Below are positions 2,726 to 34,256 of a stretch of DNA of 34,256 nucleotides, one piece after another. The notes beneath the pieces are model-generated. The model saw only the letters and a list, made by a program, of their open reading frames with translations, had not been told where the DNA came from and searched no databases. Position 1 is the stretch's first letter, and every line of letters begins with the position of its first letter. The position numbers and the translations under genes are program-made. This DNA is from an uncultured Syntrophomonadaceae bacterium (GTDB taxonomy: Bacteria; Bacillota; Dethiobacteria; PWVN01): NCBI GenBank assembly GCA_964646795.1, contig CAZYHL010000002.1:1-34256 (forward strand), written 5' to 3'.

Positions 2726-2802
2726 AAGACCACACTCCTTTTCGTACTATTTTGCTTTCAGGCAAAACTTTCCTGCTTAAATTCCGTTTTTCAAAAAATT
2801 TT

Positions 2803-3036
2803 TTAGAATAAGCCTAAAAGACCGGATAAATATTTTATGGCAGCCCCTATAATCTCCGGCGGCCGCGGCAGCGGAACCCCCGCCACCACCAGAACGGCGT
2901 AAACAGATGAACTAACCCAGAAAAGCAGAAAAAAGGCTAGGTCCCGCCATTTCCTAGAAAAAAACAACGACGGCGCCTGCAGCAGCAAAATCATAACCAT
3001 GATAAAAGAAGTTGCGATTATCAGCACTTGTTTCAC
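2803..3036 (-). CDS. small two-TM membrane protein, distal ORF of the germinant receptor operon (possible D-type subunit)
   Basis: 77-aa ORF (GTG at 3036, or GTG at 3027) lying 32 nt downstream of the gerXC stop on the same strand. It has two clear hydrophobic spans (VLIIATSFIMVMILLL and LAFFLLFWVSSSVYAVLVVAGV). Confidence 0.5.
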   Translation of the reverse strand: MKQVLIIATSFIMVMILLLQAPSLFFSRKWRDLAFFLLFWVSSSVYAVLVVAGVPLPRPPEIIGAAIKYLSGLLGLF

Positions 3037-17626: not shown

Positions 17627-18265
17627 TTAAATGCTGTTTTTAAATAAATCTTTTTCTATCCGGAAGCCGCACCATAAAATTACTAAAGCTACAGCGGCTA
17701 GAACGGCGGCTTTGCCGAGGTCGGCTGTGCTGTTAAAAATACCCTGTCCGAAAATATTTAAAGGGGAATGATCAAAATCTTCAACCAACCTAAAAAACAA
17801 GCAGTAAGTAAAATTTAAAATCAGGGGCATAAAAGTATTTTGAAACAACAAGGACAGATAATACGCCGCGGCAATTAAAAGCAGGCTTTGACTGATGACG
17901 GCAATAAACAGGTACCAGACAAAATCGAAGATAGAAGAAAAATATATAAATGCGGCCAGCACATGCAAGGAATAATAAGCCCATAAAATAAGCATTTTTA
18001 CGGAAAGGCTGTCACGGCCGGTCCTGTAGCTAAAGAGCAGCTCCTTTCCGGGTGAATTAAGATATTCCTTCATAATAAATAACGGCCACCAGGCGGAAAA
18101 GACGGGAATAAACAACTGGCTGATAAAGGCAAATTCCGGGAAACAGTCACCACTGCTGTTTTTTAATGTGGCATAAACCATCAAAGGAGTCAGGATAAAA
18201 AGGACGACGAGCGGAACGAAATAATAATACTGCTGGTTTTTCAGCTCAAGGTATAGCCTTCTCAT
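17627..18265 (-). CDS. integral membrane protein, probable permease partner of the ABC ATPase
   Basis: The track ORF starts at 18289. The ATG at 18265 shares its A with the ATPase TGA (GCGTGATGAG), which suggests translational coupling. About 6 hydrophobic spans and no recognisable motif. Confidence 0.7.
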   Translation of the reverse strand: MRRLYLELKNQQYYYFVPLVVLFILTPLMVYATLKNSSGDCFPEFAFISQLFIPVFSAWWPLFIMKEYLNSPGKELLFSYRTGRDSLSVKMLILWAYYSLHVLAAFIYFSSIFDFVWYLFIAVISQSLLLIAAAYYLSLLFQNTFMPLILNFTYCLFFRLVEDFDHSPLNIFGQGIFNSTADLGKAAVLAAVALVILWCGFRIEKDLFKNSI

Positions 18266-19113
18266 CACGCAAACCCCTTTACCAGGCACATATATCCGTC
18301 CTCCAGGCTGGGCTTCTCGCTTTGGCCGGTTTGCATCTCCTTCGCCAGTATCCTGTAGTAAACCCTGCCTTCCGTCTCGCTTGTCTTGAGAATAAATGTT
18401 TTCGCGGTAATACTTTGATATTCATCCTCCGGGACTTGGAACACCTTACCTGCCGCAATAGCCTTCAGTTCTTCGCAAGACCCGTTGAAGACAACATGTC
18501 CTTCGTTGATAACAATAACAAAGCGGCAGCAGGCATCCACATCCTCCACGATATGGGTGGAAATCAGGACCATCCTGTCCTTTTTAATCCCGCTTACGGT
18601 GTTTTTAAACCTGGCCCTTTCACTGGGGTCAAGCCCGGCCGTAGGCTCGTCCAGCAGCAATACCTTTGTCTTCCCCATAATGGCTTGCGCGATGCCGGCC
18701 CTTCTCACCATGCCGCCCGACAGCGTGTTAATCCTATCACCGGCTTTGTCTTCCAGGTTAACCTTGCGAAGGGCTTCCATTATCTCGCTGTCCCTGCTGC
18801 CTTTGGCAATCCCCTTTAATGTACAGATATAGTCCATCATTTCATACAAAGTGAGCTCCCGGAACATACCGAAGGCCTGGGGAAGATAGCCGAGGGTTTG
18901 GCGATAGCGGCGGGATTTTTGGATGGGCTCTTCGTCATAAAAAACAGTACCCTGCCGGGGTTGGTACAATCCCGTCATACAGCGTATCAGCGTGGTCTTT
19001 CCGGCGCCGTTGGCGCCCAGCAAGCCGTAAACCTCCGTATCCAGCTCTAAATTCACCCCGTGGAGCGCTTCCTTTCTGCCAAAGCTTTTACTCAAATTTT
19101 CTACCCTTATCAT
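18265..19113 (-). CDS. ABC transporter ATP-binding protein
   Basis: 282 aa with Walker A GANGAGKTT, signature LSGGMVRR and Walker B VLLLDEPTAGLD. Its start overlaps the upstream gene stop (19110-19113). Confidence 0.9.
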   Translation of the reverse strand: MIRVENLSKSFGRKEALHGVNLELDTEVYGLLGANGAGKTTLIRCMTGLYQPRQGTVFYDEEPIQKSRRYRQTLGYLPQAFGMFRELTLYEMMDYICTLKGIAKGSRDSEIMEALRKVNLEDKAGDRINTLSGGMVRRAGIAQAIMGKTKVLLLDEPTAGLDPSERARFKNTVSGIKKDRMVLISTHIVEDVDACCRFVIVINEGHVVFNGSCEELKAIAAGKVFQVPEDEYQSITAKTFILKTSETEGRVYYRILAKEMQTGQSEKPSLEDGYMCLVKGFA

Positions 19114-21230
19114 TTTTGCAGGTCCTCCCTCACAATTCTTTCAACTATATCCAAATAATTTTCACCGGTATCAGTGGTGAAATATTCCATAAAGATGCGC
19201 TTGTTCTCGTCTCTATGGGGAGATTCACGGAAAAGATATTTGGCTGCCGTTTCGTTGACGCTGGAACGCAAGCTATACATCTGCATATCTAGATTAGAAA
19301 ATGTTTCTCTTTCCTGCTCATCCAATTCCCGGATGCTTTTGTTATCCATACCCCCATATTTTTCTAATTCTTTATTGAAGTCACGTAACTCAACAATACT
19401 TTTAAGGAGCAGCTTAGGGTTTACTCCTTCCTGATAAAGCGGATCCGTCTTATCCTCCCGGTTAAATAAACAGCGTATAAACTCGTACTTAAACTCGTAA
19501 TCGGCCGGACCGGCCTTAATTAGTGAGTGGATAACATACTCAGCTAAATCTTCACTACTTATACTGTAACAAGAGGTGATGATGTGGTCGTTCATAACAA
19601 CAAAATTATTGGAACTGGAGGAAACCAGATGAGGCACGAGAAAAATTTTCCGGCTGGAAATCCCCATGGCGGCTTCAGGAAAGAAACCCATGCCGGCAAA
19701 TATGCCCCCCATTACTGCTTCAGCTTCCCTGAAGTGTTTCCGCTTGGGCCAGTTCTTTTCCAGGGGCTCGGCATACAAATTTTCTTCCACCTCGGCATAC
19801 ATGCCGGCAAATAGCGTTAAAGCGTTTGATCTCCCGGCAAAGGAGTTGCCGCTCCCTTCCAGGTTGCAGAACAGACGCAAATTGGAGCGGATGTTTACCG
19901 TAAAGTCCATTTCCTCAGGCGGAACATTGATGGAATAGCCATCCCGGCCCCAAATGTTTTTTCTGCCGGCCTGGGGGTAATAAACAAAGTAGCCGGGCAG
20001 AGTAACTGCCTGACTGTTGGCATAGAATATTGGCGATTTGCCGTAATACTTGAAGATAAGGGTGTCCTCTCCTTTTAAAGAACCCAGGGTAATGTAATCG
20101 CCCTCGCGGGTGAAAGGCATTTCCTTCCCCCTGGCAGTGGAAACGCTTTTCAGCCTGTAGCCGTGGTAGAGGGTGAAATCGTAGCTTTCAAGGCCGGGAT
20201 TATCTACGGCAACTTTCACTTCCGCGTGCAGTTCGTTGCTGATTTTGAGGTTCATTTCGTAGGCCCTGATTTTGAAACCGGCTTCACTTCCCGTGTAGTC
20301 TGCCACCGGCGTGTCCATATAATAAATTTGATCGGCGAAAACATAGGAATCATTTCTGTAGTCCATTAACAAGGTCGATCCCCTAAGGGAAAACAAGCCC
20401 ACCGCTGCCAGTACCGTGATGAATCCGGCGGCTGCCAGCCGTTTTTTTGTTCTGCCCTTGAAACACTCCATTGACACCAGGATAAGGGGGAACATAAGCC
20501 AAAATACCGCCAGTACCCACCTGATAGGTTCCATGGGATACCCATATAAGGAAATAAGCCTAAAGGTGCTGCCTATCTCGTAGGGTACAAAGGCAAAAAA
20601 ATCCTTGACGTAGTAGAGGAGCCTTTCGGCCAGGGAAGAATTGAAAAGCAGATAAGGAATTCGAAAGGGAATTTCAGTAACTTTGGTATTCAACATCAAC
20701 AAAATAACAGCAAAGCTGTAGACCTTCAGCCTCTTGGTTTTAATTTTTGCCGCCGCAGCCAACCCCAACAACCCACCGCTTGCCAGGAACAGCCCGAAAT
20801 AGAGCACCGACAGTTTTACCAGGTGAACTAAAAAGGGATGGTATTGAATATTTAAGTAAACATAGATAAAAATGTTAAAGGCAAAAAACATGAGAAAGGG
20901 TAATGCCGTCAACGTTAAAAGGCATAACATGAAAGCCTGGTAGGCTTTCCAATAACCCCGCCCGGAGGCTGCGAAATATTCGGCCATATCGTTGTCGTAT
21001 ACTTTCACGGCAAGTTCGTAACCGAGGTAAAAGAAAAACATAACTAGAAAAATGCAGGAAAGTACCACCCATTTGGTAATTTCAACTATATTACTATCGA
21101 ATATCTCCTCTAGACGCAAGTATGAAAAACCAAGATACAGAGAAATCAAAGCCAGCAAGATAAGGTATGGGATACTCAGATATTTGCTGCGCCAAAATAT
21201 CTGGAGCGTTTGTCGGTATAATTTCCGCAA
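19110..21230 (-). CDS. large membrane protein: N-terminal ABC-2-like permease region (~290 aa, multi-TM) fused to a ~410-aa extracytoplasmic domain lacking a metalloprotease motif
   Basis: 706 aa, TTG start 8 nt after GGGAGGC. It is hydrophobic up to about residue 290 and soluble afterwards. The segment FKIRAYEMNLKISNELHAEVKVAVDNPGLESYDFTLYHGYRLKSVS resembles the start of M1-aminopeptidase-like N-domains. No HExxH occurs anywhere in the protein. Confidence 0.75.
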   Translation of the reverse strand: MRKLYRQTLQIFWRSKYLSIPYLILLALISLYLGFSYLRLEEIFDSNIVEITKWVVLSCIFLVMFFFYLGYELAVKVYDNDMAEYFAASGRGYWKAYQAFMLCLLTLTALPFLMFFAFNIFIYVYLNIQYHPFLVHLVKLSVLYFGLFLASGGLLGLAAAAKIKTKRLKVYSFAVILLMLNTKVTEIPFRIPYLLFNSSLAERLLYYVKDFFAFVPYEIGSTFRLISLYGYPMEPIRWVLAVFWLMFPLILVSMECFKGRTKKRLAAAGFITVLAAVGLFSLRGSTLLMDYRNDSYVFADQIYYMDTPVADYTGSEAGFKIRAYEMNLKISNELHAEVKVAVDNPGLESYDFTLYHGYRLKSVSTARGKEMPFTREGDYITLGSLKGEDTLIFKYYGKSPIFYANSQAVTLPGYFVYYPQAGRKNIWGRDGYSINVPPEEMDFTVNIRSNLRLFCNLEGSGNSFAGRSNALTLFAGMYAEVEENLYAEPLEKNWPKRKHFREAEAVMGGIFAGMGFFPEAAMGISSRKIFLVPHLVSSSSNNFVVMNDHIITSCYSISSEDLAEYVIHSLIKAGPADYEFKYEFIRCLFNREDKTDPLYQEGVNPKLLLKSIVELRDFNKELEKYGGMDNKSIRELDEQERETFSNLDMQMYSLRSSVNETAAKYLFRESPHRDENKRIFMEYFTTDTGENYLDIVERIVREDLQK

Positions 21231-21689: not shown

Positions 21690-22025
21690 TTATTCCAGGT
21701 CCAGAATATTCATTTTTTCTATCTGTTTATTCTTCTTCAATTTTTCCCGGCTAGCAAAGTAGATTACCAATAAAATTGCTGTTGGAATATTGAATACCAA
21801 GAATATCGTTAATATATGCAAAAAATTTATAATTTCCGCTAGACCCGGTTCAGCATAGACATTTAAGGTTGGAAGGAAAGAAAATAATAAACTAATTGAG
21901 GGCAATATCAGGCCAAACCATTTGTACTCTTTTTTTGACAAGAATACTTGGATGACAATTACCCCAATTAACAATACTACAAGAATCAATACTACAAGAA
22001 TCAATAAATTCGCGGAGATACTCAT
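21690..22025 (-). CDS. small integral membrane protein (3 TM)
   Basis: 111 aa. ATG follows GGAGGAAAGTGAG, with one base (22026) between the upstream TGA stop (22029-22027) and this ATG (GTGAGATG). Three hydrophobic spans and a lysine-rich tail. Confidence 0.7.
   Translation of the reverse strand: MSISANLLILVVLILVVLLIGVIVIQVFLSKKEYKWFGLILPSISLLFSFLPTLNVYAEPGLAEIINFLHILTIFLVFNIPTAILLVIYFASREKLKKNKQIEKMNILDLE
21972..22006. repeat. perfect 15-bp tandem duplication (CAATACTACAAGAAT x2 plus a partial third copy) inside the 111-aa gene
   Basis: Read directly: 21972-21986 equals 21987-22001, followed by CAATA. It is in frame and encodes the LILVV-LILVV duplication in TM1. Confidence 0.9.
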
Positions 22026-22026
22026 C

Positions 22027-22332
22027 TCACTTTCCTCCGTCCTTCTCTGTTTTTTTATACTCTTGAATTAAAATTTTAGCGGTATCAAAGTCTAATTTCT
22101 CATTTATTGCCAACCGCTTTATTAAGGACACATAAGGATCCTTCGTATTATTCTCTGATATCTTTATTTTTTGAATTAAACGATCCAGCCTCAACCTTAC
22201 GGTGGGGTAAGTAACATTATAAATCCGGGCACTTTCTTTTAATGAACCAGAACATAATATAAATTTTTTAATGAAATTTATATCTTCGTCATCTAAAGCA
22301 GCTATCCATTCGGGCATCACATTGACAGTCAA
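22027..22332 (-). CDS. DUF2089-like helix-turn-helix transcriptional regulator (no zinc ribbon)
   Basis: 101 aa. The segment LDDEDINFIKKFILCSGSLKESARIYNVTYPTVRLRLDRLIQKI matches the DUF2089 C-terminal HTH pattern (..E..FI..F....GN.KE.....ISYPTVRN.LD..). The start is TTG 22332 or ATG 22317. Confidence 0.7.
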   Translation of the reverse strand: MTVNVMPEWIAALDDEDINFIKKFILCSGSLKESARIYNVTYPTVRLRLDRLIQKIKISENNTKDPYVSLIKRLAINEKLDFDTAKILIQEYKKTEKDGGK

Positions 22333-22419: not shown

Positions 22420-22621
22420 GGATAAAATACCCTGTCTTGGGATTATTACAGTTGAAATCCTTTACAGAAACCACAGATTTAAGTTCCGTATCCCCCTTTG
22501 ATGATACTAAAATATTTATTATACTGATGGTAGACATCCGTCATTAAGTAAATAATAATGTAATGAATACTGAAGGATAAAGAAATCGTTCTCTATGACT
22601 GAAGAAAGGGGCTACAGAATC

Positions 22622-24727
22622 ATGAAAATGAAAAAAGGTGAACCCAACCGTTTAATAAATGAAAAAAGCCCCTATCTCCTGCAGCACGCCTACAACCCGG
22701 TGGACTGGTTCCCCTGGAGCGGGGAAGCCTTTGAAAAAGCCCGCCGGGACGATAAACCGATATTTTTAAGCATCGGCTACTCCACCTGCCACTGGTGCCA
22801 TGTCATGGAAAGGGAATCTTTCGAGGATGAAGAGGTTGCCAAAGTGCTCAACGACAGTTTTGTCTGCATCAAAGTGGACCGGGAAGAACACCCCGACGTG
22901 GACGCCGTCTATATGGCTGTCTGCCAGGCCATGACGGGCAGCGGCGGCTGGCCTCTGACGGTGTTCCTGACGCCAGACAGGGAGCCTTTTTTTGCCGGCA
23001 CTTATTTCCCCAAAAACAGCGGCTACGGCCGCCCGGGCATCAAGGAACTGGCACAACAAATTTTCCATTTATGGTCTGACCGGCGGCAGGAACTCCTGCA
23101 TTCCGCCGGCAAAATTGTAGAAGGATTGAAGGGCGCATTGGAGGGTATTAAAACGGGAAAGGAACCGGGAAAGGAAACCCTGGCTAAGGCCTATGCTCAA
23201 CTATCCCGCAGTTTTGATCCCGTCTATGGCGGATTTGGCGCAGCCCCCAAGTTTCCCATGCCTCTCTACCTGTCTTTCCTGCTCAGGTACGACAAACGAA
23301 CAAATAATCCGGCCTGTTTGGCGTTGGTTGAAAAGACGCTGGCGGCCATGGGGAAGGGCGGCATATACGACCACATTGGCTTCGGCTTTCACAGGTACTC
23401 CACTGACAGGAAATGGCTCCTCCCTCATTTCGAAAAAATGCTGTACGACCAGGCTTTAATCAGCCTCGCCTATCTGGAGGCTTACCAGGTAACGGGAAAT
23501 CCCTTGTATGCTTCGAAGGTTAAAGAAATTTTTACTTATGTCATGAGGGACTTAACGGACCCCAAAGGGGCGTTTTATTCTGCCGAAGATGCCGACAGCG
23601 AGGGCGTGGAAGGAAGGTTCTACCTTTGGAGGGATGGTGAACTGAAGCAAGTTTTAGGAGAAAAGGAATACCGCGCCGCCGCTCTCGTCTACAATATTGA
23701 CCCGGAGGGGAATTATGCAGACGAAACCGCCGCTAAAACCGGCTTTAATATACTGCATCTCAAGAAGGACCCCGGGGAAATTGCCGCAGCATTACAGGTA
23801 AGAAAGGAGGACCTCCCGGAACGCCTTGAAAAGATGCGTCGGCCTCTCTTTGCCTGCCGGGAAAAAAGAGTCCGCCCCCACAGAGATGATAAAATATTAA
23901 CTGACTGGAACGGCTTGATGATAGCCGCTCTCGCCAGGGGCGGCCGGGTGCTGGCGGCGGAAGCGGAAGCATACCTGGAAGCAGCGGAAAAAGCCGCTTC
24001 TTTCATCTGCATGAAAATGATGACTCCCGAGGGGCGGCTCAAGAAAAGGTACCGGGATAATGAAACAAAGGGAAACGCCTATGCCGCTGATTATGCTTTT
24101 TTTATCTGGGGCCTACTGGAGCTCTACCAGGCTACCTTTAAAACCGACTACCTTAAAAAAGCCCTGGAGTTGGAAGATATGTTCATCGAATCCTACTGGG
24201 ATGACGAAGAAGGAGGCTTCTTCCTGGCAGCCAGGGATGATGACGAACTGCCCCTTAAGGTTAAGGAAATAGATGACGGGGCCGTTCCCTCGGCCAACTC
24301 AGCGGCCGCCCTGAACCTTTTAAAGCTGGCTCGGATTACGGGGAAGAAAGAGCTGGCGGAGAAAGCGGAAGCCATAGGCCGCTCCTTCGCCGGTAACATC
24401 ACCGGCAATCCGGCCGCCTATACCTATTATCTTTCTGCCCTTGATTTTCAGCTGGGCCCTGTTTTTGAGGTGGTAATTGCGGGAGACAGAAACAACCCGG
24501 AAACCCGGAAAATGCTGCAAAAACTAAATAGTCCCTTTATACCCGGGGCTGTCTTCCTGTTCAAAGACACTGGCAATAAAGAAGAAAGGGAGAATCTGGA
24601 AGAGATTGCTCCCTTGACAAGGGGCAAGGAAAAACTAGATGGTAAAACTACCGTATATGTTTGCCGCGATTATACCTGCCTGGCCCCCGTTACCGACCCG
24701 CAAAAGGCCCTGTCCCTACTCCTCTAA
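22622..24727 (+). CDS. thioredoxin domain-containing protein, DUF255/YyaL (SSP411-like) family
   Basis: About 700 aa with N-terminal [32 protein letters not shown]...[16 protein letters not shown] (thioredoxin fold with CxxC), followed by a long alpha/alpha-toroid-like region. ATG 22622 (SD AAAGGGG) is preferred over track start 22595. Confidence 0.9.
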
Positions 24728-24730
24728 GGC

Positions 24731-26098
24731 TTAGCGGCGGGTTAAAGCCGCAAAATTTATCCCCTCGTTCAGGGTCGGGTGGACGTGAATCATTTCCCTT
24801 AAGTCTTCCAAAACCGCACCGAAACGAAGCGCCATGACCAGCTCATGAATCAAGTCCCCGGCATGGGGCGCCATGATTAAGGCGCCTAAAAGCTTTTCCG
24901 TACCTTCTTCATAAATTAGCTTAATAAAGCCCGCCGTTTCTTTCATGGCTTGAGCCCTGCCCAAAAACCTCAAAGGATAAAATATTGTGCCGCTGGCAAA
25001 ACCCTGCCGGCGGGCTTCTGCTTCCGTTAAACCTACGGCAGCAATTTCAGGATCCGTAAAAATAGTGAAGGGAACAATGCGGTTCTCCAGGGAAAAGGCT
25101 TCGCCTTGGTTAAAATAGCGAGACAAAAGGTAGGCGTCATGGCGGGCGGTATGGGTATACATGGGCGGCCCCGTTACATCCCCCATAGCCCAATGGCTGT
25201 CCACCGCTGTTTTTAGGGAAGAGTCTACTTTGATAAAGCCTTTTTCATCAAGTTCTATCCCTGCCTTATCGAGATGAAGTCCGTCCGTGTTGGGCTTTCT
25301 CCCCGTAGCCGCCAGCAATTTTTCCGCGGTGAAAATTTCTTCCTTTCCTTCCAAGTCAACGGTAATCCTGGTTGATTCACCGTCCCGGCTTACTCCTCTG
25401 GCCTTCGCTCCGAAAAATACCTTCACGCCTTCCTGCCGGAGTACTTTTAAAAGTTCCCGGCCGGCCTCTTCCTCTACATGAGGAATCAGGCGGTTAGACC
25501 TTTGTAAAACCGTTACCCGGGAACCGAAACGGGCAAACATCTGGGCAAATTCCACAGCCACCGTACCGCCGCCCAGGATGACGAGGCTTTCGGGAACCTC
25601 CCCAAGCTCCATGATGGTAGTGGAAGTCAAGCAGCCTGTCTCTTCCAGGCCTTTAACAGACGGAAGCAGGGGGCGGGCACCGGTACCTATAATAATGCGC
25701 TCTCCTTTTATTTCCCTGTCACCTACTCTGATAATCCCGGGAGACTGAAAATGAGCCTCTGCCTCAATCAGTGTAAGCGCTTCGATGTCGGCTACTGCCC
25801 GGTGGGCATGTTTCAACATTCTTTGTACCAGTTCGTTCTTCTTAGCCACAATCAAGGCAAGGTCGACCTTGCCGGCCGCCGCCTCTTTGAAGCCATAATC
25901 TTTACCCCGCCTAGCATATTCGGCCACTTTGGCCGCATGAATTAAATCCTTGGAGGGGATACAGCCGATATTGGGACAAGTTCCTCCCAGGGGTCCCTTC
26001 TCCACCAGAGCGGTCTTATGCCCCTCCCGGGCCAGCCTGACAGCCAGGGTGAAGCCCGCCGAACCGCCTCCTATGATAACGAAGGAGTAGTTTTCCAT
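24731..26098 (-). CDS. class I pyridine nucleotide-disulfide oxidoreductase (dihydrolipoyl dehydrogenase/glutathione reductase family)
   Basis: 455 aa with the FAD site IIGGGSAG, the redox-active disulfide GGTCPNIGCIPSK, the NAD(P) site LGGGTVAVEFA, and the C-terminal interface motif HVHPTLNEG. Confidence 0.9.
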   Translation of the reverse strand: MENYSFVIIGGGSAGFTLAVRLAREGHKTALVEKGPLGGTCPNIGCIPSKDLIHAAKVAEYARRGKDYGFKEAAAGKVDLALIVAKKNELVQRMLKHAHRAVADIEALTLIEAEAHFQSPGIIRVGDREIKGERIIIGTGARPLLPSVKGLEETGCLTSTTIMELGEVPESLVILGGGTVAVEFAQMFARFGSRVTVLQRSNRLIPHVEEEAGRELLKVLRQEGVKVFFGAKARGVSRDGESTRITVDLEGKEEIFTAEKLLAATGRKPNTDGLHLDKAGIELDEKGFIKVDSSLKTAVDSHWAMGDVTGPPMYTHTARHDAYLLSRYFNQGEAFSLENRIVPFTIFTDPEIAAVGLTEAEARRQGFASGTIFYPLRFLGRAQAMKETAGFIKLIYEEGTEKLLGALIMAPHAGDLIHELVMALRFGAVLEDLREMIHVHPTLNEGINFAALTRR

Positions 26099-26138: not shown

Positions 26139-29100
26139 TTAGAGTTTTAGCATCAGAGAGCCGTTAAAATAATAAAGGTATTTCTCCGCCACCTCCTCTT
26201 GCCAAGCGGCCTGAACGGCCCGGGCATATAAATTTATTTGTTCCCTGTATCTGTCCGCCAGCTTCTCTGCTTCAACCCCGGCAGTTCTATCCGTCTTGTA
26301 ATCAAGCAGAATGAGGCCGCCTTTTTCCTCCCGGAAAAGACAATCAATTACTCCCTGGACGAGTACCTCTTCGCCTTTTTCACCGGGGAGAGCTTCTTCC
26401 CGCCAGTGGGGGTAGACTTCCTCAGCCGGCAAAACCAAACTGAAAGACAGCTCCCGGTATACCTCCGGGGCTGCTGCAAGCCGCCTGCCCAGGGGTGTTC
26501 GGAAAAATGAGACAATCTGCCGGGGATTAATGGCCCGGTAAGCTTGTGCCTCTATTTGGCCAGCAGCGGCCATTGCGGTCAGCTTGGCTTTGATTTCTGC
26601 TTCAGAGGGCAAAATGCCCCGATCCCAATCCAAATGCTGCATCACAAAATGGTATGCCGTCCCTCTTTCGGCGCTCTTCAAACCTTCCCTGCCTAGAAAA
26701 CGAGGCCTGAAGGGCGGCTGCTTCTCACCGCCCCCGGCAAAGGGATACGGCTCGCCCTCTTCCTCCAGGCGGCGACTTTTGATTTCCGAAACAGTCAGCT
26801 TGGCCCGATGGAAGGGTGAAAGCGCACAAGGGTATTTCCAGGTCAGCCGCCTTTCCACCTCCGGAGCATCGGGCCCGGGAGCGCCTACCGGTTTTAAAAG
26901 AGTTATCCGGGCTCTTTCCTCTTTTTTTGCTGTTGTTTCTTCCTCCTCCCCCGCTCCGGCGGCAAGGGGCAAAAGTTCTCCTGCCGAAACCATGGTAAAA
27001 CACCAATGTGAGCGCTCCTTATCCTCGACAACACACACCGGGTCTATTCCGGCAGCCTGCCTGAGGGTCAAAGCCTCAGGATGACGAAGCAGGGCAGGGC
27101 CGAGCCAATCCAAACAACTCTTGGCCTTGGCCCGATAAAAAGCAGGCAGAAGCGAACCTCCTCCGGGAGTCAAGGCCGGCAGCCACTTTTTCGCTTCTTT
27201 TGGGAGATTCTTGACGGAGGCAACCAGATAAAGCTTCTCCTCTGCCCTGGTCATGGCTACATAGAGGATGCGCATTTCTTCCGCCAGCATCTCCAACTCC
27301 AATTTGGCCTTTACGGCAGTAAAGGGAAGGGTGGGATAGCTTACCCGTTGAAAGGTATCAATAAAGCGGGGGCCAAAGCCTAAATCCTTGTGAAGCAAAA
27401 AATCCTGATAAAGGTCCTTCTTATTAAACTGCTTGCCCAGGCCGGCGACAAAAACTACCGGGAACTCCAACCCCTTGCTTTTATGGACAGTAATAATCCT
27501 GATAACATCTTCCCGCTCTCCCGCAGCCCGGGCTGAAGCTAGGTCGCCGCCGCCTTCCTGGAGTTTTTCGATAAATTTGAGAAAGCGGAACAAGCCCCTG
27601 AAGGAACCTTCTTCATACTGCCTGGCCCTTTCATATAAGGCCCTCAAATTAGCCTGACGCTGCTGCCCGCCAGGCATTCCCCCCACAAAATCATAGTAAC
27701 CTGTTTCACGATACAGCCGCCAGACAAGGTCCGGGAGGGATTCTTCCCGGGCTTTTTCCCGCCAGCCTTCCAGCCGTTCTAAAAAAGCGGCGGTTTTTAA
27801 AGGCAAATCGTCGTCTTCCGCTGCCGCCGCACTCGCGCTATACTCCTTAACCGCCTCATAATAAGGGCTGCGGGGCGCAGCCAGGCGCAGGTGCGCCAGG
27901 TCTTCGCCCTTGAAGCCAAAGAGGGGGGAACGCAACACGGCAGCCAGGGGAATATCCTGGTAAGGGTTATCAATAACCTTGAGGAGAGAAAGAATCACTT
28001 CCACCTCTACGGCGGCAAAATACCCCGAATTAAGCTCCGCATAGGCAGGCAAGCCGGCCTCCTTGAGCGCTTCCAAAAAAGACGGGGCATAACTTTCGGT
28101 TGAACGCAAAAGGATAACAATATCCCGACAGTTTATGGGCCGATATTCTTTCTTTGCCTTATCATAAACATAAGCCCGGGGAGAACCGTTCCGCCCTAAA
28201 AGTTCCTTGATTTTTAAAGCTATCAGGCGGCCTTCCAGCAGGCTGCCAACCGCTTCCTCTCTGGCTTCTTCCTCCCTGTCGTTATCCGGGGCGGCAATAT
28301 CCTCCTCCCCCAAGGATCCCCCTTCCGTGTCCTCCAGGGAAACGAGGAGAAACTCCCCTTCTTCTTCCGCCGCTGCGGCCAAGGCCGGGAAAGCAGCGCC
28401 ATAATCAAGCCTTGCCTTGGCATCATACTCAATCTCTCCGACTTTTTCGTCCATTATCTGTCCGAAGAGATAATTCACTGCTGCCAGCACTCCCCGGCGG
28501 CTGCGGAAGTTACGGGACAGGTCTATCCTGCGGCCGCCTTCGCCGCCGGCAGCAAAACGCCGGTATTTCTCGAGGAAGAGTCCGGGCTCCGTTAGACGGA
28601 AGCGGTAAATACTTTGCTTGACGTCTCCAACCATAAATAAGTTGCCGTCGGTGCCGGAGCCGCCGCGGGACACCAGCTTGAGGATAGTTTCCTGAATTTC
28701 ATTGGTGTCCTGATATTCGTCCACCAAAACCTCCTGAAAACGCCGCCGGTAATCCAAAGCCGCCTCAGACGGCACAGGCTGCCCGGGAAGGGAACCGGGT
28801 CCGCTTAAAAGGGCAAGGGCATGATGCTCCAGGTCAGAAAAATCCAAAAGCCCCTTTTCTTCCTTGGCCTCCCTGTACCTGTCGGCAAAAGCGCCGGTCA
28901 ACTGCACCAAAGCCTCCACCAGCGGAGCAAGGGTCATTATTTCTTCTTTCTGTTCCTCAAAGGAACGGCTGAAACATTCTTTTTTAAGATTGTTAAAATA
29001 TTTTTTCGCCTTATCCCTGAGTTCCCTGGCCCTCTCAGCGGGGGCAGGGTCATAAGCATCCTTTTTTAACGGTTTTAGCCTGTCGAAAGTAGCTTGGTGC

Positions 29101-29951
29101 ACAGCCTCAAAAAAAGCCGGCCAGCCTTTTAAAGCTTCCTCCCTGAGCCTCTTAAAGGCAGTTAGCTCCGCGCTGATTGTCTCCAGGTAGGGAGTCGGGC
29201 CGCCGGGAGCGGCAGCGGTTTCGCCGGCCGCCATGAGCAGGCTGATTATATTTTCTATTTCCATTAAAGCAGTTGAGGCTATGATTTGATGCCAGGAGCT
29301 AATCCCCGGGTCGTCCCCGTTTAAGCGGAAGGCGCAGGCTGTCTCATCGAGCCAGTTTTCCGGCCAGGGATGGCTCCGGGAGAAAAAGTAAAGACGCAAA
29401 ACCAACTGCTGCAGGGCGGCATCCCCCCGGGAACCGCTGTAAGCCTCCGCCAGGCGGTAAAAAGGGCTGTTCTCCTCATTCTCGTCATAATATACTTCCA
29501 GGGTTGCTTCCAAAATTTCTTGCCTGAGCAGGTCTCCTTCTTTTTCCTCTAAAATGCGATAGGAGGGGTTCAAATCCTTAAGGTAAAAATATTTATGCAA
29601 CACCTCGGCGCAAAAGGAATGAAGCGTGGAAATTGAGGCCTTGTCCAGCAGCAAAGCCTGCCGCCTGATATGGGATGCGTCCGGCTGCTCTTTTATGGCT
29701 TCCTCCAGGGCTTTGCCGATGCGCTGGCGCATTTCGGCAGCGGCGGCATTGGTAAAGGTTACGACCAGCAGCCTGTCCAGGTCTAAGGGCTCTGTGCCGG
29801 CCACTACTTTGCGGATTATTCGCTCAACCAATACCCGAGTCTTGCCCGAGCCCGCTCCGGCGGCCACCAGCAGATCCCCGGTCGGCAAGGTGATGGCTTC
29901 CAGCTGTTCCCGTGTCCATTCAGTAGTCCTGTCAGGTTTGTGTTCTGTCAA
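26139..29951 (-). CDS. addA: helicase-exonuclease AddAB, subunit AddA
   Basis: 1270 aa with UvrD-type motifs (GAGSGKT, DEYQDTN) and the C-terminal RecB-family nuclease motif GVIDCLF...LLDYKTD. Its TTG start abuts the addB stop (TAATTG). Confidence 0.95.
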   Translation of the reverse strand: MTEHKPDRTTEWTREQLEAITLPTGDLLVAAGAGSGKTRVLVERIIRKVVAGTEPLDLDRLLVVTFTNAAAAEMRQRIGKALEEAIKEQPDASHIRRQALLLDKASISTLHSFCAEVLHKYFYLKDLNPSYRILEEKEGDLLRQEILEATLEVYYDENEENSPFYRLAEAYSGSRGDAALQQLVLRLYFFSRSHPWPENWLDETACAFRLNGDDPGISSWHQIIASTALMEIENIISLLMAAGETAAAPGGPTPYLETISAELTAFKRLREEALKGWPAFFEAVHQATFDRLKPLKKDAYDPAPAERARELRDKAKKYFNNLKKECFSRSFEEQKEEIMTLAPLVEALVQLTGAFADRYREAKEEKGLLDFSDLEHHALALLSGPGSLPGQPVPSEAALDYRRRFQEVLVDEYQDTNEIQETILKLVSRGGSGTDGNLFMVGDVKQSIYRFRLTEPGLFLEKYRRFAAGGEGGRRIDLSRNFRSRRGVLAAVNYLFGQIMDEKVGEIEYDAKARLDYGAAFPALAAAAEEEGEFLLVSLEDTEGGSLGEEDIAAPDNDREEEAREEAVGSLLEGRLIALKIKELLGRNGSPRAYVYDKAKKEYRPINCRDIVILLRSTESYAPSFLEALKEAGLPAYAELNSGYFAAVEVEVILSLLKVIDNPYQDIPLAAVLRSPLFGFKGEDLAHLRLAAPRSPYYEAVKEYSASAAAAEDDDLPLKTAAFLERLEGWREKAREESLPDLVWRLYRETGYYDFVGGMPGGQQRQANLRALYERARQYEEGSFRGLFRFLKFIEKLQEGGGDLASARAAGEREDVIRIITVHKSKGLEFPVVFVAGLGKQFNKKDLYQDFLLHKDLGFGPRFIDTFQRVSYPTLPFTAVKAKLELEMLAEEMRILYVAMTRAEEKLYLVASVKNLPKEAKKWLPALTPGGGSLLPAFYRAKAKSCLDWLGPALLRHPEALTLRQAAGIDPVCVVEDKERSHWCFTMVSAGELLPLAAGAGEEEETTAKKEERARITLLKPVGAPGPDAPEVERRLTWKYPCALSPFHRAKLTVSEIKSRRLEEEGEPYPFAGGGEKQPPFRPRFLGREGLKSAERGTAYHFVMQHLDWDRGILPSEAEIKAKLTAMAAAGQIEAQAYRAINPRQIVSFFRTPLGRRLAAAPEVYRELSFSLVLPAEEVYPHWREEALPGEKGEEVLVQGVIDCLFREEKGGLILLDYKTDRTAGVEAEKLADRYREQINLYARAVQAAWQEEVAEKYLYYFNGSLMLKL

Positions 29952-32900
29952 TTAATCTCCCTCCTCTTCCGAGCGGGTAACAGCTGCCTCGATTTTCCGC
30001 AGTATGACATCATCTTTGTCCCACCGCAAGAAGCGGTACCTGTTCCCCGCCAATTTGGGATCAAACTGGCAGACCGCCTTATGCGGGCAGAAGCGGCAAG
30101 CTTTCTTCTCTTTCAAGCTGGAGGGAGCGATGCTGATTTCGCCCGCTGCTATGTCCCGGGAGGCTTCTCTAATACTTTTTTCAATAAATTCACCCAGCAT
30201 TGAAAACTCCCGCAATTCAAACAAACTGCTATTTTTATGGAAACCTCCGGCTGTTAAAGCCAAAGGTACAATCGCCGAGCTGCCGCCGGTCAAATTTTTA
30301 TCCATCAGCCGGGCCGCTTCCAAATCCTTAAGCACTCTCCCTTCCATTCTGGAGGCCTTGAATAGTTTTTTCTGGGCTTCTTCCGGAGAAAGGGGGGTTT
30401 TTTCTTTCAGCAAGGGAGACTGGATTGAGAAATAAAGCGCTCCGGCCGGCAGGACCTCTTCCCCCAACTGCTCTGCCGCCATATCCAAAGCGATACCGAG
30501 ATAGAGAAGAAGCTGGAGGGAAAGGCCGTAGTATATTTCCGCCGGATCCAGCTTTGTGCTACCCGATTTATAGTCCACCACCCGTAAATAATACCTGCCG
30601 TCGCTGCCCCTTGCTATGTCAATACGGTCAATCCGTCCCCGCAGACGGACAAGAGTGCCGTTCTCCAAACGAAAAACGGGACCCGCCGCCGCTTCTCCTG
30701 CGCCGAAAGAGACTTCCAAACCTACCGGTTTGAAGCAGCCGCCGCGAAACTGCTCTCTTATAACCAGTGCGGCCCTTTTAACTGTTTCTTTGAGCTGGTT
30801 GCCGAGATAACGGTAACGGTTGGAGCTAAGGAGGATTTCTCCCTGCAGTAAAGGCATCAGCTTTTCGACTTCCGTTTCGATAATCTTTTCCAGGGAATCT
30901 ATGTCCAGGTTCTCCCAGTCCAGCCCTTTTTCCGCCACAGCCTTGAAAAGACGGTAAAGGGCGGCATGGTAGAAGCGGCCAATGCCGGGATAGTCCAGGC
31001 GGTAAACAGGGCGCTCTTGCAGCCGAAGCCCGTAAGAGATGAAATGATTGAAGGGGCAGGCCTTATATTTTTCCAGCCGGGAAACACTGACTCCCAGGGC
31101 GGAACCGTATAGCCGGCGGCTGGTCCTTGCAGTAAGCCGTTCTTCGTTATTGGCATAAAAGACACCCGCTAAAACTCTTTTTACTTCCTCATGCCATTCT
31201 TCCCTCGAAGCATACCAATTGTAGAGGTCCCACCAAAGAGAAGCCAACCTTTCACCCCGGTCCCAGGCATTTAGCTTTACTGCAAGGTGGGACAGGGCAC
31301 GGCGGGGATGGGCAATGTAAGCCATGCCACCCTCTTCTTTAGGTTCCTGAAGAAGTTCCTCCTCGATGGTCAAAGGGAAAAGACGCTTGAGCCGGGAAAA
31401 GACGGCGGCAGGCATAAGAGCTTTCCCTTCCGCATCGGCCAGTGCAGTGCTGACCCTGAGATATGCGGAGGAACGGGTCAACACCTGATAGGTCAGGTAC
31501 TGCTCGTCCAGCATCTGCCGCTTGGCTCCGGGCGGCAGTTCTAATCCGGCGTTAATCAGGTCTTCTCTTTCTTCCTCCGTAAAGAAGCCTGTCTCCTTGG
31601 GGGCAGCAGGAAATACCCCCTCATTTAACCCTAGGATAAAAACAGCCTTGACAGCTCCGGGGCGGGTTCGCCGGGGTGTTCCGACCAGGACACCGTCCAG
31701 GGAAGGGGGGACCAGCTTCAACCGCAGACTGTCCAGCCCCTCCTCCACAAGGCGGGTAAAATAGGAAAAGGCTACCTTTTCCTCTCCCATTATTTCCACC
31801 AGCTGGTCCATCATAGCGACAACCAGGCGGTAAACCTGAAGATGTTCTCTCCCCTTCTCCGCATTTCCAGCAGCATAAGCTTCAGCCTGCCACTCTTCCA
31901 GGCGGCGGTAAACCGCGGTATCTTCCAACAGTTGAAAGAGAAGCGCCGTTTTATCTCTGATCGTTGCCGCTTCCTTCATTTTTTCCTTTAGTTTGAGCAA
32001 CGGAGCGCTTATTTGCCTGCGGGTGTCGTTTATTTCTCGTAAAAAAGCTTCCGCCTTGCCCGAAGCTTCCCCGCCGCCGAAATCGTCCAGGGAATCCGCT
32101 TTTTGATAAGGCCAGTCTTCCTGCTTGAACCAGCCGGAGCCTCTTATGCCGAAGGCTAGAACGTAGTTTTCCAGGCGGCATAACCTTTCCCGCCACTCCT
32201 TAAGCTCTTCTTTTTTCAGCCCCGCCGGCAGGAGAAACTCCGTTTTAGCGCAACGAAAGCAGGCTTCATAAGGCCAGTTATGACTTAATACATCCAGGGT
32301 CGAACGCAAAAACTCCACCAGGGGGTGGTTAAGCACATCCCTTTTTTCATCCAGAAAAAAAGGGATTTCATAATCGGCAAAAACCGCCTTCAAAAGGTGG
32401 CGGTAAGCTTCTATTTCCCCCGCCATGACGGCAATATCCCGCCAGCGCAATTGTTTATCCCTGACCAGAGAGATAATTTCCCTGGCAACACCTTCCACTT
32501 CCGCCAGTCGGTTGGCTGCCGTCACCAGACGCAGACGGGGAAACTCCCCTCCCTCTTTATCACCAAAGGGTACGGGGGGATAGCTGTGAAACTCCTTTTC
32601 CAGATGGGCCAGCGGAGCACTCTCGCGGAAACGGTAAGGAGGTTCGTTTTTCAACACTTGGACAACTACCGGCAAGTTCAGCAAGCAGGCTTCCTGCTTC
32701 AAAAGAATTAAAGCTCGCGCGGCAGGGAAAAAAGGATTTAATTCGTTTAAAAGCTCGCCGGGAGGGTAATCCCTGTCCAGGCAAAAAGTTACGGTAACTT
32801 CAGCCGTGTGTTTGAGCAGTTCTCTTATAACCGCCAGTTCCTGGTTGGTATAGCTGTGGAATCCGTCCAGCCAAATCCTGCCTTTTTTTAAAAAAGCAGA

Positions 32901-33473
32901 TTGGGAAACCCCGGCGGCAAGTAAATCCAAACACTCCTCTGCATCCAGATAATCGGCTGCCAGCTCCGTCCTAATATGTTCCATAATGAGCGCCAGGTCG
33001 GCTATTTTTTGTCTTAAGTGGGGCGATAAAGCCTTGCTGTCGGTAACAGCCTCAAGCTGTTCAAGGGAGACCCGGGAACTTTTCAGCTCATTATAAGCCT
33101 CAACGACTCTTTCCACGATACCTTCCCGTCGGCTGCTTATCTTGGCGGCTTTAAGAGACGTCCGGCATCTCTCCAGAACTTTGCGGGCTACCATGGCCTT
33201 GCCGACATCATCTATATAAATCCGCCGGTCTCCGCCCGCCTCCTGCATCACCTTGAAAGCCAAACGGCGAAAACTCAAAACCTGGCCTCTGATGCTGCCT
33301 CGGATGTCGGAGGAACCGAGAAGGGCATATTCCGCCTGAAAGGTAGCCTGCTCCGGTGTTATGTAGATGAGAGGCGGCCCCTTTGGACTTATCTTTAATT
33401 CTTCCCTGATCTCATGCATGCATAGATGAGTCTTACCGCTGCCTGCCCGGCCGATAATAAGCCTGAGAGCCAA
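29952..33473 (-). CDS. addB: helicase-exonuclease AddAB, subunit AddB
   Basis: 1173 aa with Walker A GRAGSGKT, the nuclease motif GRIDRID...VVDYKSG, and Fe-S staple cysteines (KACPFNHF ... CRFCPHKAVC). TTG start lies 8 nt after GGAGG. Confidence 0.95.
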   Translation of the reverse strand: MALRLIIGRAGSGKTHLCMHEIREELKISPKGPPLIYITPEQATFQAEYALLGSSDIRGSIRGQVLSFRRLAFKVMQEAGGDRRIYIDDVGKAMVARKVLERCRTSLKAAKISSRREGIVERVVEAYNELKSSRVSLEQLEAVTDSKALSPHLRQKIADLALIMEHIRTELAADYLDAEECLDLLAAGVSQSAFLKKGRIWLDGFHSYTNQELAVIRELLKHTAEVTVTFCLDRDYPPGELLNELNPFFPAARALILLKQEACLLNLPVVVQVLKNEPPYRFRESAPLAHLEKEFHSYPPVPFGDKEGGEFPRLRLVTAANRLAEVEGVAREIISLVRDKQLRWRDIAVMAGEIEAYRHLLKAVFADYEIPFFLDEKRDVLNHPLVEFLRSTLDVLSHNWPYEACFRCAKTEFLLPAGLKKEELKEWRERLCRLENYVLAFGIRGSGWFKQEDWPYQKADSLDDFGGGEASGKAEAFLREINDTRRQISAPLLKLKEKMKEAATIRDKTALLFQLLEDTAVYRRLEEWQAEAYAAGNAEKGREHLQVYRLVVAMMDQLVEIMGEEKVAFSYFTRLVEEGLDSLRLKLVPPSLDGVLVGTPRRTRPGAVKAVFILGLNEGVFPAAPKETGFFTEEEREDLINAGLELPPGAKRQMLDEQYLTYQVLTRSSAYLRVSTALADAEGKALMPAAVFSRLKRLFPLTIEEELLQEPKEEGGMAYIAHPRRALSHLAVKLNAWDRGERLASLWWDLYNWYASREEWHEEVKRVLAGVFYANNEERLTARTSRRLYGSALGVSVSRLEKYKACPFNHFISYGLRLQERPVYRLDYPGIGRFYHAALYRLFKAVAEKGLDWENLDIDSLEKIIETEVEKLMPLLQGEILLSSNRYRYLGNQLKETVKRAALVIREQFRGGCFKPVGLEVSFGAGEAAAGPVFRLENGTLVRLRGRIDRIDIARGSDGRYYLRVVDYKSGSTKLDPAEIYYGLSLQLLLYLGIALDMAAEQLGEEVLPAGALYFSIQSPLLKEKTPLSPEEAQKKLFKASRMEGRVLKDLEAARLMDKNLTGGSSAIVPLALTAGGFHKNSSLFELREFSMLGEFIEKSIREASRDIAAGEISIAPSSLKEKKACRFCPHKAVCQFDPKLAGNRYRFLRWDKDDVILRKIEAAVTRSEEEGD

Positions 33474-33488
33474 TAAAAACGCCTCCGT

Positions 33489-33839
33489 TTACAAAATTGC
33501 CTCCAGTTCCGGGGTCTTAAACCCCAGGACAATTTTCTCTCCTCTGGTTATGATTGGTCGTATCAGAACCCTGGGATTTTCACCGGCTACCTTAACAGCT
33601 TCTTCCTCTCCGATGTTTTCCGGATCCACACCCATTTTTTTTAGGGTACGGCTTTTTTTATTAATCAATTCTTTTGCCTTTAAACCGTGTTGGGCGGCCA
33701 AGGCTTTTAATTCTTCTTCCTTAAAAGGGTCTTTGAGGATATCCCGGTAAATCAAATCAACGCCTTGCTGCAAAAGCCACGCTTTTGCTTTTCGACACGT
33801 GCTTCAGGCGGGAAAACAGTAAAAAACTGTATCAGTCAC
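33489..33839 (-). CDS. ArsC/Spx-family (arsenate reductase-like thioredoxin fold) protein with an in-frame TGA, probably selenocysteine, at codon 12 (UxxC)
   Basis: GTG 33839 lies 7 nt after AAGGAGGG. The frame reads MTDTVFYCFPA-TGA-STCRKAKAWLLQQGVDLIY... and continues into the track ORF 33489..33773. TGA (33806-33804) aligns with the first Cys of the family motif (Spx: SPSCTSCRKARAWL). The C-terminal LIRPIITRGEKIVLGFK is also family-typical. Total 116 codons, a normal family length. Confidence 0.7.
33770..33788 (-). promoter_or_regulatory. candidate bacterial SECIS hairpin
   Basis: The minus-strand RNA reads GCAAAAGC-GUG-GCUUUUGC, a perfect 8-bp stem. The stem starts 15 nt after the UGA. 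The G/U-containing apical loop begins 26 nt downstream of the U of the UGA, within the 16-37 nt range recalled for bSECIS. Confidence 0.5.
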
Positions 33840-33866
33840 AATGTAACCCTCCTTGTTTAGCTTGTT

Positions 33867-34256
33867 TTAACCCGACATGGCCAGGGCCAAGGCTCCGTAA
33901 AGGCCTGCCTTATTCCTTAATGGAGATAGGATTATTTTGACGTGCCTCCCCTGTTCCCGCATGGCATGTCTTGCCACTTGAGCCTTAACGGCGGCAAGCA
34001 GTTTGTCCCCAGCAAGGCTCAAGCCACCGCCGATAATGACCCGGTCGGGGTTGAATATATTAATGAGTCCTGCTAAACCGATACCCAGCCAACCGGCACA
34101 GCGTTTAAAAGCAATGGCGGCAGCAATATCGCCCCTGTCATAGGCCTCGGAGACCATTTCAGCTGTAATAACGCCTTCAGTTGCCGCCAGTTCATGCAGC
34201 AGGGAAAAAGGATCTTTTAAGGCCTCCAGCCTTCCTTCCCTAGCCAAGGCAGGCGC
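33867..34256 (-). CDS. ROK family protein (glucokinase-like), C-terminal part (gene starts beyond the right edge)
   Basis: The frame is open to the window edge. The C-terminal ROK pattern is present: ...RGDIAAAIAFKRCAGWLGIGLAGLINIFNPDRVIIGGGLSLAGDKLL... Confidence 0.85.
   Translation of the reverse strand, partial: APALAREGRLEALKDPFSLLHELAATEGVITAEMVSEAYDRGDIAAAIAFKRCAGWLGIGLAGLINIFNPDRVIIGGGLSLAGDKLLAAVKAQVARHAMREQGRHVKIILSPLRNKAGLYGALALAMSG

Follow-up and report, generated by a model that had tools for sequence, protein, structure and literature searches.

A stretch of 34,256 nucleotides (nt) from an uncultured Syntrophomonadaceae bacterium (contig CAZYHL010000002.1; "the window" below means this whole stretch, as it was analysed) carries at 33839-33489, on the minus strand, a gene that is interrupted in frame by a TGA codon. 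Comparison with related loci makes it very probable that this is one intact gene encoding a 116-residue selenoprotein of the ArsC/Spx (thioredoxin-like) fold, in which the TGA is read as selenocysteine (Sec). A first, sequence-only reading of the window had argued for recoding rather than for a pseudogene, and three findings bear that argument out: the TGA column is conserved among relatives, the reading frame is kept on both sides of it, and the hairpin that follows it covaries.

The interrupted gene

The open reading frame (ORF) has 116 sense codons if the TGA is counted as one, and the TGA is its sole interruption. Eleven sense codons precede it, encoding MTDTVFYCFPA (GTG ACT GAT ACA GTT TTT TAC TGT TTT CCC GCC). 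After the TGA the frame continues as AGC ACG TGT CGA AAA GCA AAA GCG TGG CTT TTG (S-T-C-R-K-A-K-A-W-L...) and stays open to a TAA. All residues that are invariant in the family are present in the window protein. The features of the gene, including a hairpin resembling a selenocysteine insertion sequence (SECIS), are as follows.

33854-33847, minus strand: Shine-Dalgarno sequence AAGGAGGG, read directly, with a 7-nt spacer to the GTG
33839-33837, minus strand: start codon GTG; 33491-33489, minus strand: stop codon TAA
33489..33839, minus strand: complete coding sequence of the predicted ArsC/Spx-fold protein, 116 codons with Sec proposed at codon 12 (translation, Pfam, family-invariant residues, homologue model)
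33816..33818, minus strand: TGT codon of Cys8 in the FYC motif, four residues ahead of Sec, an extra Cys specific to the family
33804..33806, minus strand: in-frame TGA, the proposed Sec codon (U12), in the column of Cys10 of the Spx CxxC motif
33795..33797, minus strand: TGT codon of Cys15, second residue of UxxC (Cys13 of Spx), invariant in 80/80 family members
33770..33788, minus strand: SECIS-like hairpin, with stem GCAAAAGC (33788-33781) and GCUUUUGC (33777-33770) around a GUG triloop (33780-33778)
33489..33773, minus strand: 94-amino-acid (aa) fragment from a TTG start, the sole product of mechanical ORF calling and a truncation artefact

The Shine-Dalgarno sequence, GTG, TGA, 116 codons and hairpin had all been described in the sequence-only reading, and every coordinate proved correct to the base. 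It had also expected standard annotation to truncate the gene, as indeed happens: the product of the window in the public protein collection (P0001) is 88 aa long and begins at MIYRDILK, inside the fragment that the ORF lister reports, leaving 88-94 aa of the protein. A scan of the window for TGA-split genes gave no second split gene or selenoprotein candidate.

Conservation of the TGA codon

Related loci were counted in a set of 96, made up of the window, the locus of the homologue P0002 (L018), 14 genome loci and the best 80 of 572 metagenome relatives. The genome scan used one genome per species and returned 17 loci, 15 of them close relatives. Sources of the relatives are metagenome-assembled genomes of Syntrophomonadaceae, Bacillota and Sumerlaeota, together with mostly non-marine-looking metagenomes. 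Tallies of residues refer to 80 distinct family members.

An alignment of orthologues had been proposed in the sequence-only reading to establish what stands in column 12. Across the 96 loci, the window included, the codon is TGA in 95 and TGC in one (L073), with no instance of TAA or TAG, and the loci carrying TGA share 35-55% protein identity. The genome scan alone found TGA at the exact column in 14 of the 15 close relatives (35-53% identity), the exception being L013, whose N-terminus is garbled; among the best 80 metagenome relatives, 79 have TGA and L073 is again the one with TGC. At the protein level the 5-11 codons preceding the TGA are conserved (FYC[FVI]P[TA]), and the peptide immediately 5' of it ([FY]YC[FVI]x[TAS]) is kept, with a start codon 4-6 codons before the peptide, which indicates that the reading frame is translated on both sides of the TGA.

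When the family profile is compared with Spx structures, the two align without gaps (E = 4e-28), the TGA column falling on Cys10 and the following Cys on Cys13. A HMMER search of the full library found Cys-form members with the FYC..C..C pattern, namely P0007, P0008 (the protein of L073), P0041 and P0057. The TGA thus sits where the sequence-only reading had put it, at the first Cys of the CxxC motif: Cys10 in Spx, TGC in L073 and Cys in P0007, P0041 and P0057.

Trp, rather than Cys, stands at the TGA column in all three full-length homologues that the first, word-indexed search returned (P0002-P0004; FYCFPxWxTCRKAKAWL). A nonsense mutation from TGG to TGA was considered on this account and dropped, as the DNA behind P0002 (L018:532-882) has TGA and so do the 14 genome loci. 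The stored P0002 protein disagrees with the translation of its gene under genetic code 11, and the Trp at the Sec column in public predictions is an artefact of gene calling under code 4 on short contigs. Full-length "Trp" forms in public sets are P0002-P0006 and P0070; the HMMER search of the full library also returned several code-4 "W" forms and many family products of 85-105 aa that are truncated at the N-terminus.

Four loci of the genome scan call for separate mention. The copy at L015:6022-6228 has a TAA 68 codons past the Sec codon, after which the frame is lost, and the copy at L013:148-480, with its garbled N-terminus, has no U/CxxC region; these two are either decaying genes or assembly errors. 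L016 and L017, from Pseudogracilibacillus, entered the scan results through the YRDILK motif; they are Spx-like paralogues that have lost the Cys at both redox positions (LYGSSTASTRKARRWF), not selenoprotein orthologues.

A conserved hairpin after the TGA

The window hairpin has a stem of 8 base pairs (bp) and a GUG triloop, the stem beginning 15 nt and the loop 23 nt after the TGA. Numbering from the U of UGA as 1, hairpins of the relatives fall into two classes. Class A (65 distinct sequences, 64 of them aligned) pairs positions 20-26 with 30-36, for a stem of 7-8 bp and a loop of G27-U28-G29; an extra pair, 19:37, is present in 14 sequences, the window among them. In this class 88% of cells are paired, compared with 25-53% in slid controls, and none of 500 shuffles matches the observed values, although kinship among the hairpin sequences means that such shuffle statistics overstate independence and so count for less than they seem to. 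Changes on both sides of the stem occur at three pairs, for example at 21:35, where 60 sequences have G-C and three, including the window, have A-U. Class B (14 sequences) has its stem 3 nt further upstream, pairing 18-23 with 27-32 around a loop of G24-G25-C26 that lies 20 nt after the UGA. Its closing pair is GC in six, AU in two, UA in two and GU in two, and links base 2 of a Lys, Arg or Met codon with base 3, a synonymous site, of the Ala codon that follows. The triloop has G first in both classes; a small apical loop containing G is a hallmark of bacterial SECIS elements (PMC1088965).

Synonymous codon choice in the stem differs sharply from that in the rest of the same genes: Ala is encoded by GCG in 75% (positions 19-21) and 83% (25-27) of cases in the stem versus 17% elsewhere, Leu by CTT in 88% versus 16%, and Ser by TCG in 79% versus 6%. 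Mean minimum free energy is -8.4 kcal/mol for the observed sequences and -5.6 kcal/mol for synonymous recodings. L073, the single Cys-form orthologue whose DNA was examined, encodes the same KAKAWL with the codons AAA GCA TGG TTG, and there the hairpin is lost (-3.8) and folds worse than the recodings of L073 itself. Selection at the RNA level, beyond what the peptide contributes, is evident from these comparisons. The SECIS-like geometry that had been claimed from the window therefore holds at the place and spacing described and recurs, with a G-first loop, compensatory changes and synonymous bias, in orthologues that carry TGA, while the Cys form of L073 is without it.

Several observations, besides the kinship mentioned above, weigh against reading the site as a Sec codon with its own SECIS. 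The 66-nt stretch of the window folds no better than dinucleotide shuffles of it (z = +0.61), whereas only 2% of synonymous recodings of the same peptide fold as well as the window; a fold of the single sequence is thus uninformative, and the case for the hairpin rests on the comparison with relatives. The KAKAWL peptide itself favours a palindrome (AAAGC...GCTTT), and because the recodings still average -5.6 kcal/mol, part of the hairpin is due to the amino-acid sequence. Rfam gave neither a SECIS family nor any other credible hit, whether for the window at gathering thresholds or for the site at E <= 10, and the hairpin loop is some 4 nt more distant from the UGA than that of E. coli fdhF. 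Finally, no transfer RNA (tRNA) genes, tRNA-Sec included, were found in the 34-kb window or in the flanks of 68 loci.

Selenocysteine in neighbouring genes and relatives

Indirect evidence that these organisms decode UGA as Sec comes from an adjacent gene in relatives. In 29 of the related loci the sequence FYPGDFTFV-TGA-PTE is found about 500 nt upstream on the same strand, in a gene that matches the selenoprotein family PrxU (NF040737) with 367.7 bits against a cut-off of 270. With a TGA in the PrxU gene next door, those 29 genomes recode TGA in a recognised selenoprotein family. The PrxU gene of L040, for example (2303-2918, plus strand), has its TGA at the peroxidatic position, and PrxU has a conserved hairpin of its own after the UGA (UUGGCG-UCAGUUGC-CGCCAG). 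For Syntrophomonas wolfei, SelD has been reported, as have an FdhA, an HdrA and a peroxiredoxin that contain Sec (PMC1794560).

As to mechanism, the hairpin, 15 nt past the UGA and with its GUG triloop, would act as a bacterial SECIS during translation. It would recruit SelB-GTP-Sec-tRNA(Sec), and the UGA at codon 12 would then be read as selenocysteine and not as a stop. By analogy with known systems, we infer that insertion of Sec at codon 12 is SelB-dependent.

Family and fold of the protein

The joined product, its stop replaced by Cys, scores 61.1 bits against Pfam ArsC (PF03960), above the gathering threshold of 24. The AlphaFold model of the homologue P0002 (mean predicted local distance difference test score, pLDDT, 87.7) superposes on Spx, ArsC-related and YffB structures with template modelling (TM) scores of 0.85-0.87, and on Spx 3gfk with 0.87. 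Models of the narrower families give scores below their cut-offs throughout: 73.7 bits for Spx NF002459 (cut-off 123), 68.9 for Spx/MgsR TIGR01617 (75.05), 52 for ArsC TIGR00014 (106), 28.2 for ArsC PRK10026 (242) and 24.9 for the ArsC-related (seleno)protein NF041106, ArsC_rel_Se_1 (85). The label "ArsC/Spx family" given in the sequence-only reading is thus right as to the ArsC fold and Pfam membership, and does not extend to Spx proper or to NF041106. Among 13 family members the best E-value is 1.4e-8 to NF041106 versus 2.3e-29 to the Spx/MgsR model, and some relatives outscore the window protein on the Spx/MgsR models.

The protein that matches best, by sequence and by structure, is Spx, the global regulator of disulfide stress in Bacillus subtilis (1Z3E, 3GFK, 7F75): the alignment is ungapped over 113 residues at about 30% identity (TM 0.87), the redox motif is at positions 10/13, and R92-P93-[IL]94, K15 and W19 are conserved. 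U or C at position 10 and C at position 13 occur in 80/80 members, so that the CxxC redox switch of Spx is retained with Sec for Cys10. R92 and P93 are likewise found in 80/80, with L, I or V at position 94 in 79/80; the R92-P93-I94 motif is, however, also general to the ArsC fold. Functional determinants described for Spx include Gly52 and the contacts R47, T53, D54, L76 and Y80 with the RNA polymerase alpha subunit's C-terminal domain (alpha-CTD), and the C-terminal ~28 residues serve in contact with sigma-A and recognition by YjbH/ClpXP (PMC8501982). In the window family, by contrast, none of the 80 members has Gly at position 52 (the residue being T, S, E, K or N), the five alpha-CTD contact positions are not conserved across them, and in 74/80 only 1-4 residues follow the one at Spx position 113, so that the last ~18 residues are missing and with them the C-terminal helix and degron. 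Position 6, which is Thr6 in Spx, is Cys in 80/80 members, producing a C-x3-U-x2-C site. By these sequence features the window protein is not a canonical Spx.

A selenium-containing regulator of the Spx type, which in oxidative stress would attach to the alpha-CTD of RNA polymerase instead of working as a redox enzyme, and might itself be oxidised by PrxU, nevertheless has to be considered. Spx structures are the nearest (E = 4e-28 to 3gfk/1z3e; TM 0.87), NF002459 and TIGR01617 are the top NCBIfam matches, and one source names a Cys-form member "Spx/MgsR family transcriptional regulator"; UxxC and R-P-[LI] are conserved, and regulator genes often adjoin their targets. Against this stand the absence of Gly52, the alpha-CTD contacts and the C-terminal tail across the 80 members, and window scores below the cut-off of every Spx model, and we regard a regulator of this type as unlikely.

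Possible function and the link to PrxU

The active site of the proposed selenoprotein would be C8-x3-U12-x2-C15 at the start of helix 1, where U12 and C15 occupy the CxxC positions of the Spx/ArsC family. Judging from fold and motif, its activity is most likely that of a selenol/thiol-disulfide oxidoreductase: the selenolate would attack an oxidised substrate, and C15, possibly together with C8, would resolve the selenenylsulfide.

Gene neighbourhood offers a hint as to the substrate. In the 29 loci mentioned above the order is copper P-type ATPase, PrxU, ArsC/Spx-fold gene, macro-domain protein, gatC and gatA, and in most of them 40-50 nt separate the stop of the PrxU gene from the downstream Sec codon of the ArsC/Spx-fold gene. 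In some loci the spacer between the PrxU gene and the ArsC-like gene is about 75 nt, most having a much shorter one; in L040 this spacer holds a strong GC-rich inverted repeat at 2925-2962 on the plus strand (GGGGGAGAC...GTCTCCCCC) with no T-run. All 22 distinct PrxU sequences read GEPTPAGW, with Thr at the place where 2-Cys peroxiredoxins have their resolving Cys. About one third of the relatives stand second in a PrxU operon, and these PrxU copies are without the usual resolving Cys; what the family typically reduces or resolves is therefore probably PrxU in its oxidised form, or targets like it.

It is tempting to go further and suppose that the C-x3-U-x2-C protein is a dedicated partner of PrxU, the two selenoproteins forming a module for detoxifying or sensing peroxide. 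The selenenic acid of PrxU would be resolved by the selenolate or a thiol of the partner through an intermolecular Se-Se or Se-S bond, and the partner would then either be re-reduced, in the manner of a reductase, or pass on the oxidation signal, in the manner of an Spx-like sensor. Two points tell against such a link: the gene in the window has no PrxU neighbour, there being no PrxU gene anywhere in the window, and the NCBI name for PrxU, "thioredoxin-dependent peroxiredoxin", implies that a dedicated partner may be unneeded. We therefore put the module forward only tentatively, as a possibility well short of an even chance. The stand-alone copy in the window may serve other targets, beside a flavoprotein disulfide reductase encoded nearby.

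Other readings of the gene

Read-through of the TGA without Sec, either at a low level by a near-cognate Trp or Cys tRNA or under a reassigned code in which TGA means Trp or Gly, could draw on the leakiness of UGA, the highest of any bacterial stop codon, and on the choice of code 4 by public gene callers for short contigs bearing this gene. Of the 26 window ORFs that were checked, 8 nevertheless terminate at TGA, and AddB (1173 aa) and AddA (1270 aa) are each called as an ORF with no stop in frame. TGA is accordingly an ordinary stop in the window, which excludes a reassigned genetic code. The recoded site, moreover, is the catalytic Cys column and is followed by a conserved hairpin with a G-first loop, and the gene is adjoined in 29 relatives by PrxU with a TGA at its peroxidatic position. 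Taken together, these points leave read-through without Sec quite improbable.

A genuine glutaredoxin-coupled ArsC arsenate reductase with Sec as its nucleophile would agree with Pfam ArsC membership and with the Sec-containing "arsenate reductases" reported among marine selenoproteins (PMC1088965, PMC2398784). The scores for TIGR00014 and PRK10026 fall short, however, and no ars genes were seen either in the gene clusters conserved next to the loci or in those window ORFs that were annotated. Where ArsC has Arg60, the window protein has Lys and the family K, G or R, and the motif is the dithiol-type UxxC and not the UxxS of ArsC-type selenoproteins. We consider an arsenate reductase of this kind very improbable. 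Least credible of all is a pseudogene or sequencing error, in which TGG (Trp) or TGC/TGT (Cys) would have become TGA and a truncated product or none would be made: the Trp of the homologues P0002-P0004 (TGG being one transition from TGA) and the decayed look of L015 could be cited for it, but that Trp is an artefact, 95/96 loci have TGA, the invariant residues of the window protein are intact, and the window keeps both a compensatory A-U stem pair and the extra eighth pair. What remains, and is preferred here, is an intact selenoprotein gene.

Genomic context

The neighbours of the selenoprotein gene in the window, all on the same strand, are as follows.

33867..34256, minus strand: 3' end of a ROK-family (glucokinase-like) gene (Pfam ROK; NCBIfam TIGR00744, partial), with its stop 27 nt before the GTG
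29952..33473, minus strand: addB (Pfam ADDB_N and PDDEXK_1), starting 15 nt past the selenoprotein stop
26139-29951, minus strand: addA (Pfam UvrD-helicase)
24731-26098, minus strand: class-I flavoprotein disulfide reductase gene (Pyr_redox_2 and Pyr_redox_dim), 40 nt after addA

A search of 33300-34256 gave no promoter-like or terminator-like site on the minus strand, and the selenoprotein gene, addB, addA and the flavoprotein gene are probably co-transcribed. The flavoprotein is MerA/Lpd-like, with 431.7 bits against a MerA cut-off of 454. On the strand opposite to the selenoprotein gene, 22595-24727 (plus strand) encodes a 710-aa DUF255 thioredoxin-domain protein. The flavoprotein and the DUF255 protein are possible redox partners of the selenoprotein.

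Three contexts can be told apart among the relatives. The first is the PrxU operon of 29 loci described above. In the second, seen in 14 loci (those with class-B hairpins and the Cys form), the gene lies directly downstream of AmmeMemoRadiSam genes. The third is that of the window, ROK - selenoprotein gene - addB - addA - flavoprotein disulfide reductase. The sequence-only reading had called the position directly upstream of addBA unusual, and it is in fact unique, neither the addB nor the ROK adjacency having a match in any other of the 96 loci; chance is thus a likelier explanation of it than function, and a link in function to AddAB was considered and dropped on the same ground.

The window has AmmeMemoRadiSam genes of its own, a LigB/Memo-like and AMMECR1 fusion (TIGR04335) and a radical SAM enzyme (TIGR04337) at 302-2725 on the minus strand. 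No ArsC-like gene follows in the next 300 nt, unlike in the 14 loci of the second context. A hydrophobic ORF (about 1-195, minus strand), perhaps a transporter to judge from the look of its sequence, starts after them and has no match in the loci.

Relation to known selenoproteins

ArsC-like selenoproteins had been said in the sequence-only reading to be predicted computationally before, and papers of 2005-2008 do contain such predictions: a Sargasso Sea "arsenate reductase" with a UxxS motif (PMC1088965), ArsC-like selenoproteins in Desulfotalea and Desulfuromonas (Zhang and Gladyshev 2006; PMC1794560), and "Arsenate reductase 2", with cd03032, a UxxC motif and 42 sequences, from Global Ocean Sampling (GOS) data (Zhang and Gladyshev 2008; PMC2398784). 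Reviews of 2022 and 2026 list a UxxC arsenate reductase-like protein, equated with NF041106, as uncharacterised (2026: PMC13188914). The UxxC ArsC-like selenoproteins share with the window clade the ArsC/Spx fold, Sec in first place of UxxC, a SECIS-like hairpin 3' of the UGA, and the fact that they are known from sequence only. The window clade differs in its poor fit to NF041106, its extra invariant Cys and its PrxU operon, a tentative separation from the proteins published in 2006 and 2008 that is drawn from their descriptions and the NF041106 model. It is also nearly all Sec-form (79 of the best 80 metagenome loci). The model cd03032 is one that we take to be the Spx subfamily model of CDD.

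In the literature searched we found no paper that links Spx with selenoproteins, and Peng 2016 and Haft 2022 make no mention of ArsC. Three traits of the clade appear to be undescribed in that literature: the misfit to NF041106, the additional Cys and the operon with PrxU. The kind of selenoprotein, on the other hand, is one already known since 2006-2008, and knowledge of Sec decoding is unchanged.

Two further comparisons concern the recoding signal. PrxU resembles the window protein in being a selenoprotein of anaerobic Bacillota with the UGA at its catalytic Cys and a hairpin directly downstream, but it has the AhpC/TSA fold, and its SECIS, starting 15 nt after the UGA, has a stem of 5-6 bp and an 8-nt loop, UCAGUUGC. 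The SECIS of the E. coli fdhF type similarly lies in the coding sequence directly 3' of the UGA; its small apical loop exposes G (and U) and is expected to bind SelB (PMC1794560, PMC1088965), whereas the window family has a perfect stem of 7-8 bp and a 3-nt loop, with no bulged U.

The family is large, with 572 metagenome relatives matched, and is missed by the curated model for ArsC selenoproteins. The alignment together with a descriptor of the hairpin could correct many annotations that are now truncated or made under code 4. To the ArsC/Spx superfamily the clade would add a C-x3-U-x2-C site that is nearly all Sec, and its recurrent operon with a Sec-peroxiredoxin lacking the resolving Cys provides a testable hypothesis of function for an uncharacterised class of selenoproteins.

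Elsewhere in the window, two minus-strand ORFs, one of 706 aa (19110-21230) and one of 111 aa (21690-22025), have no Pfam match at E <= 1e-5. They adjoin an ABC-transporter ATPase gene (18265-19113) and a DUF2089 helix-turn-helix gene (22027-22332).

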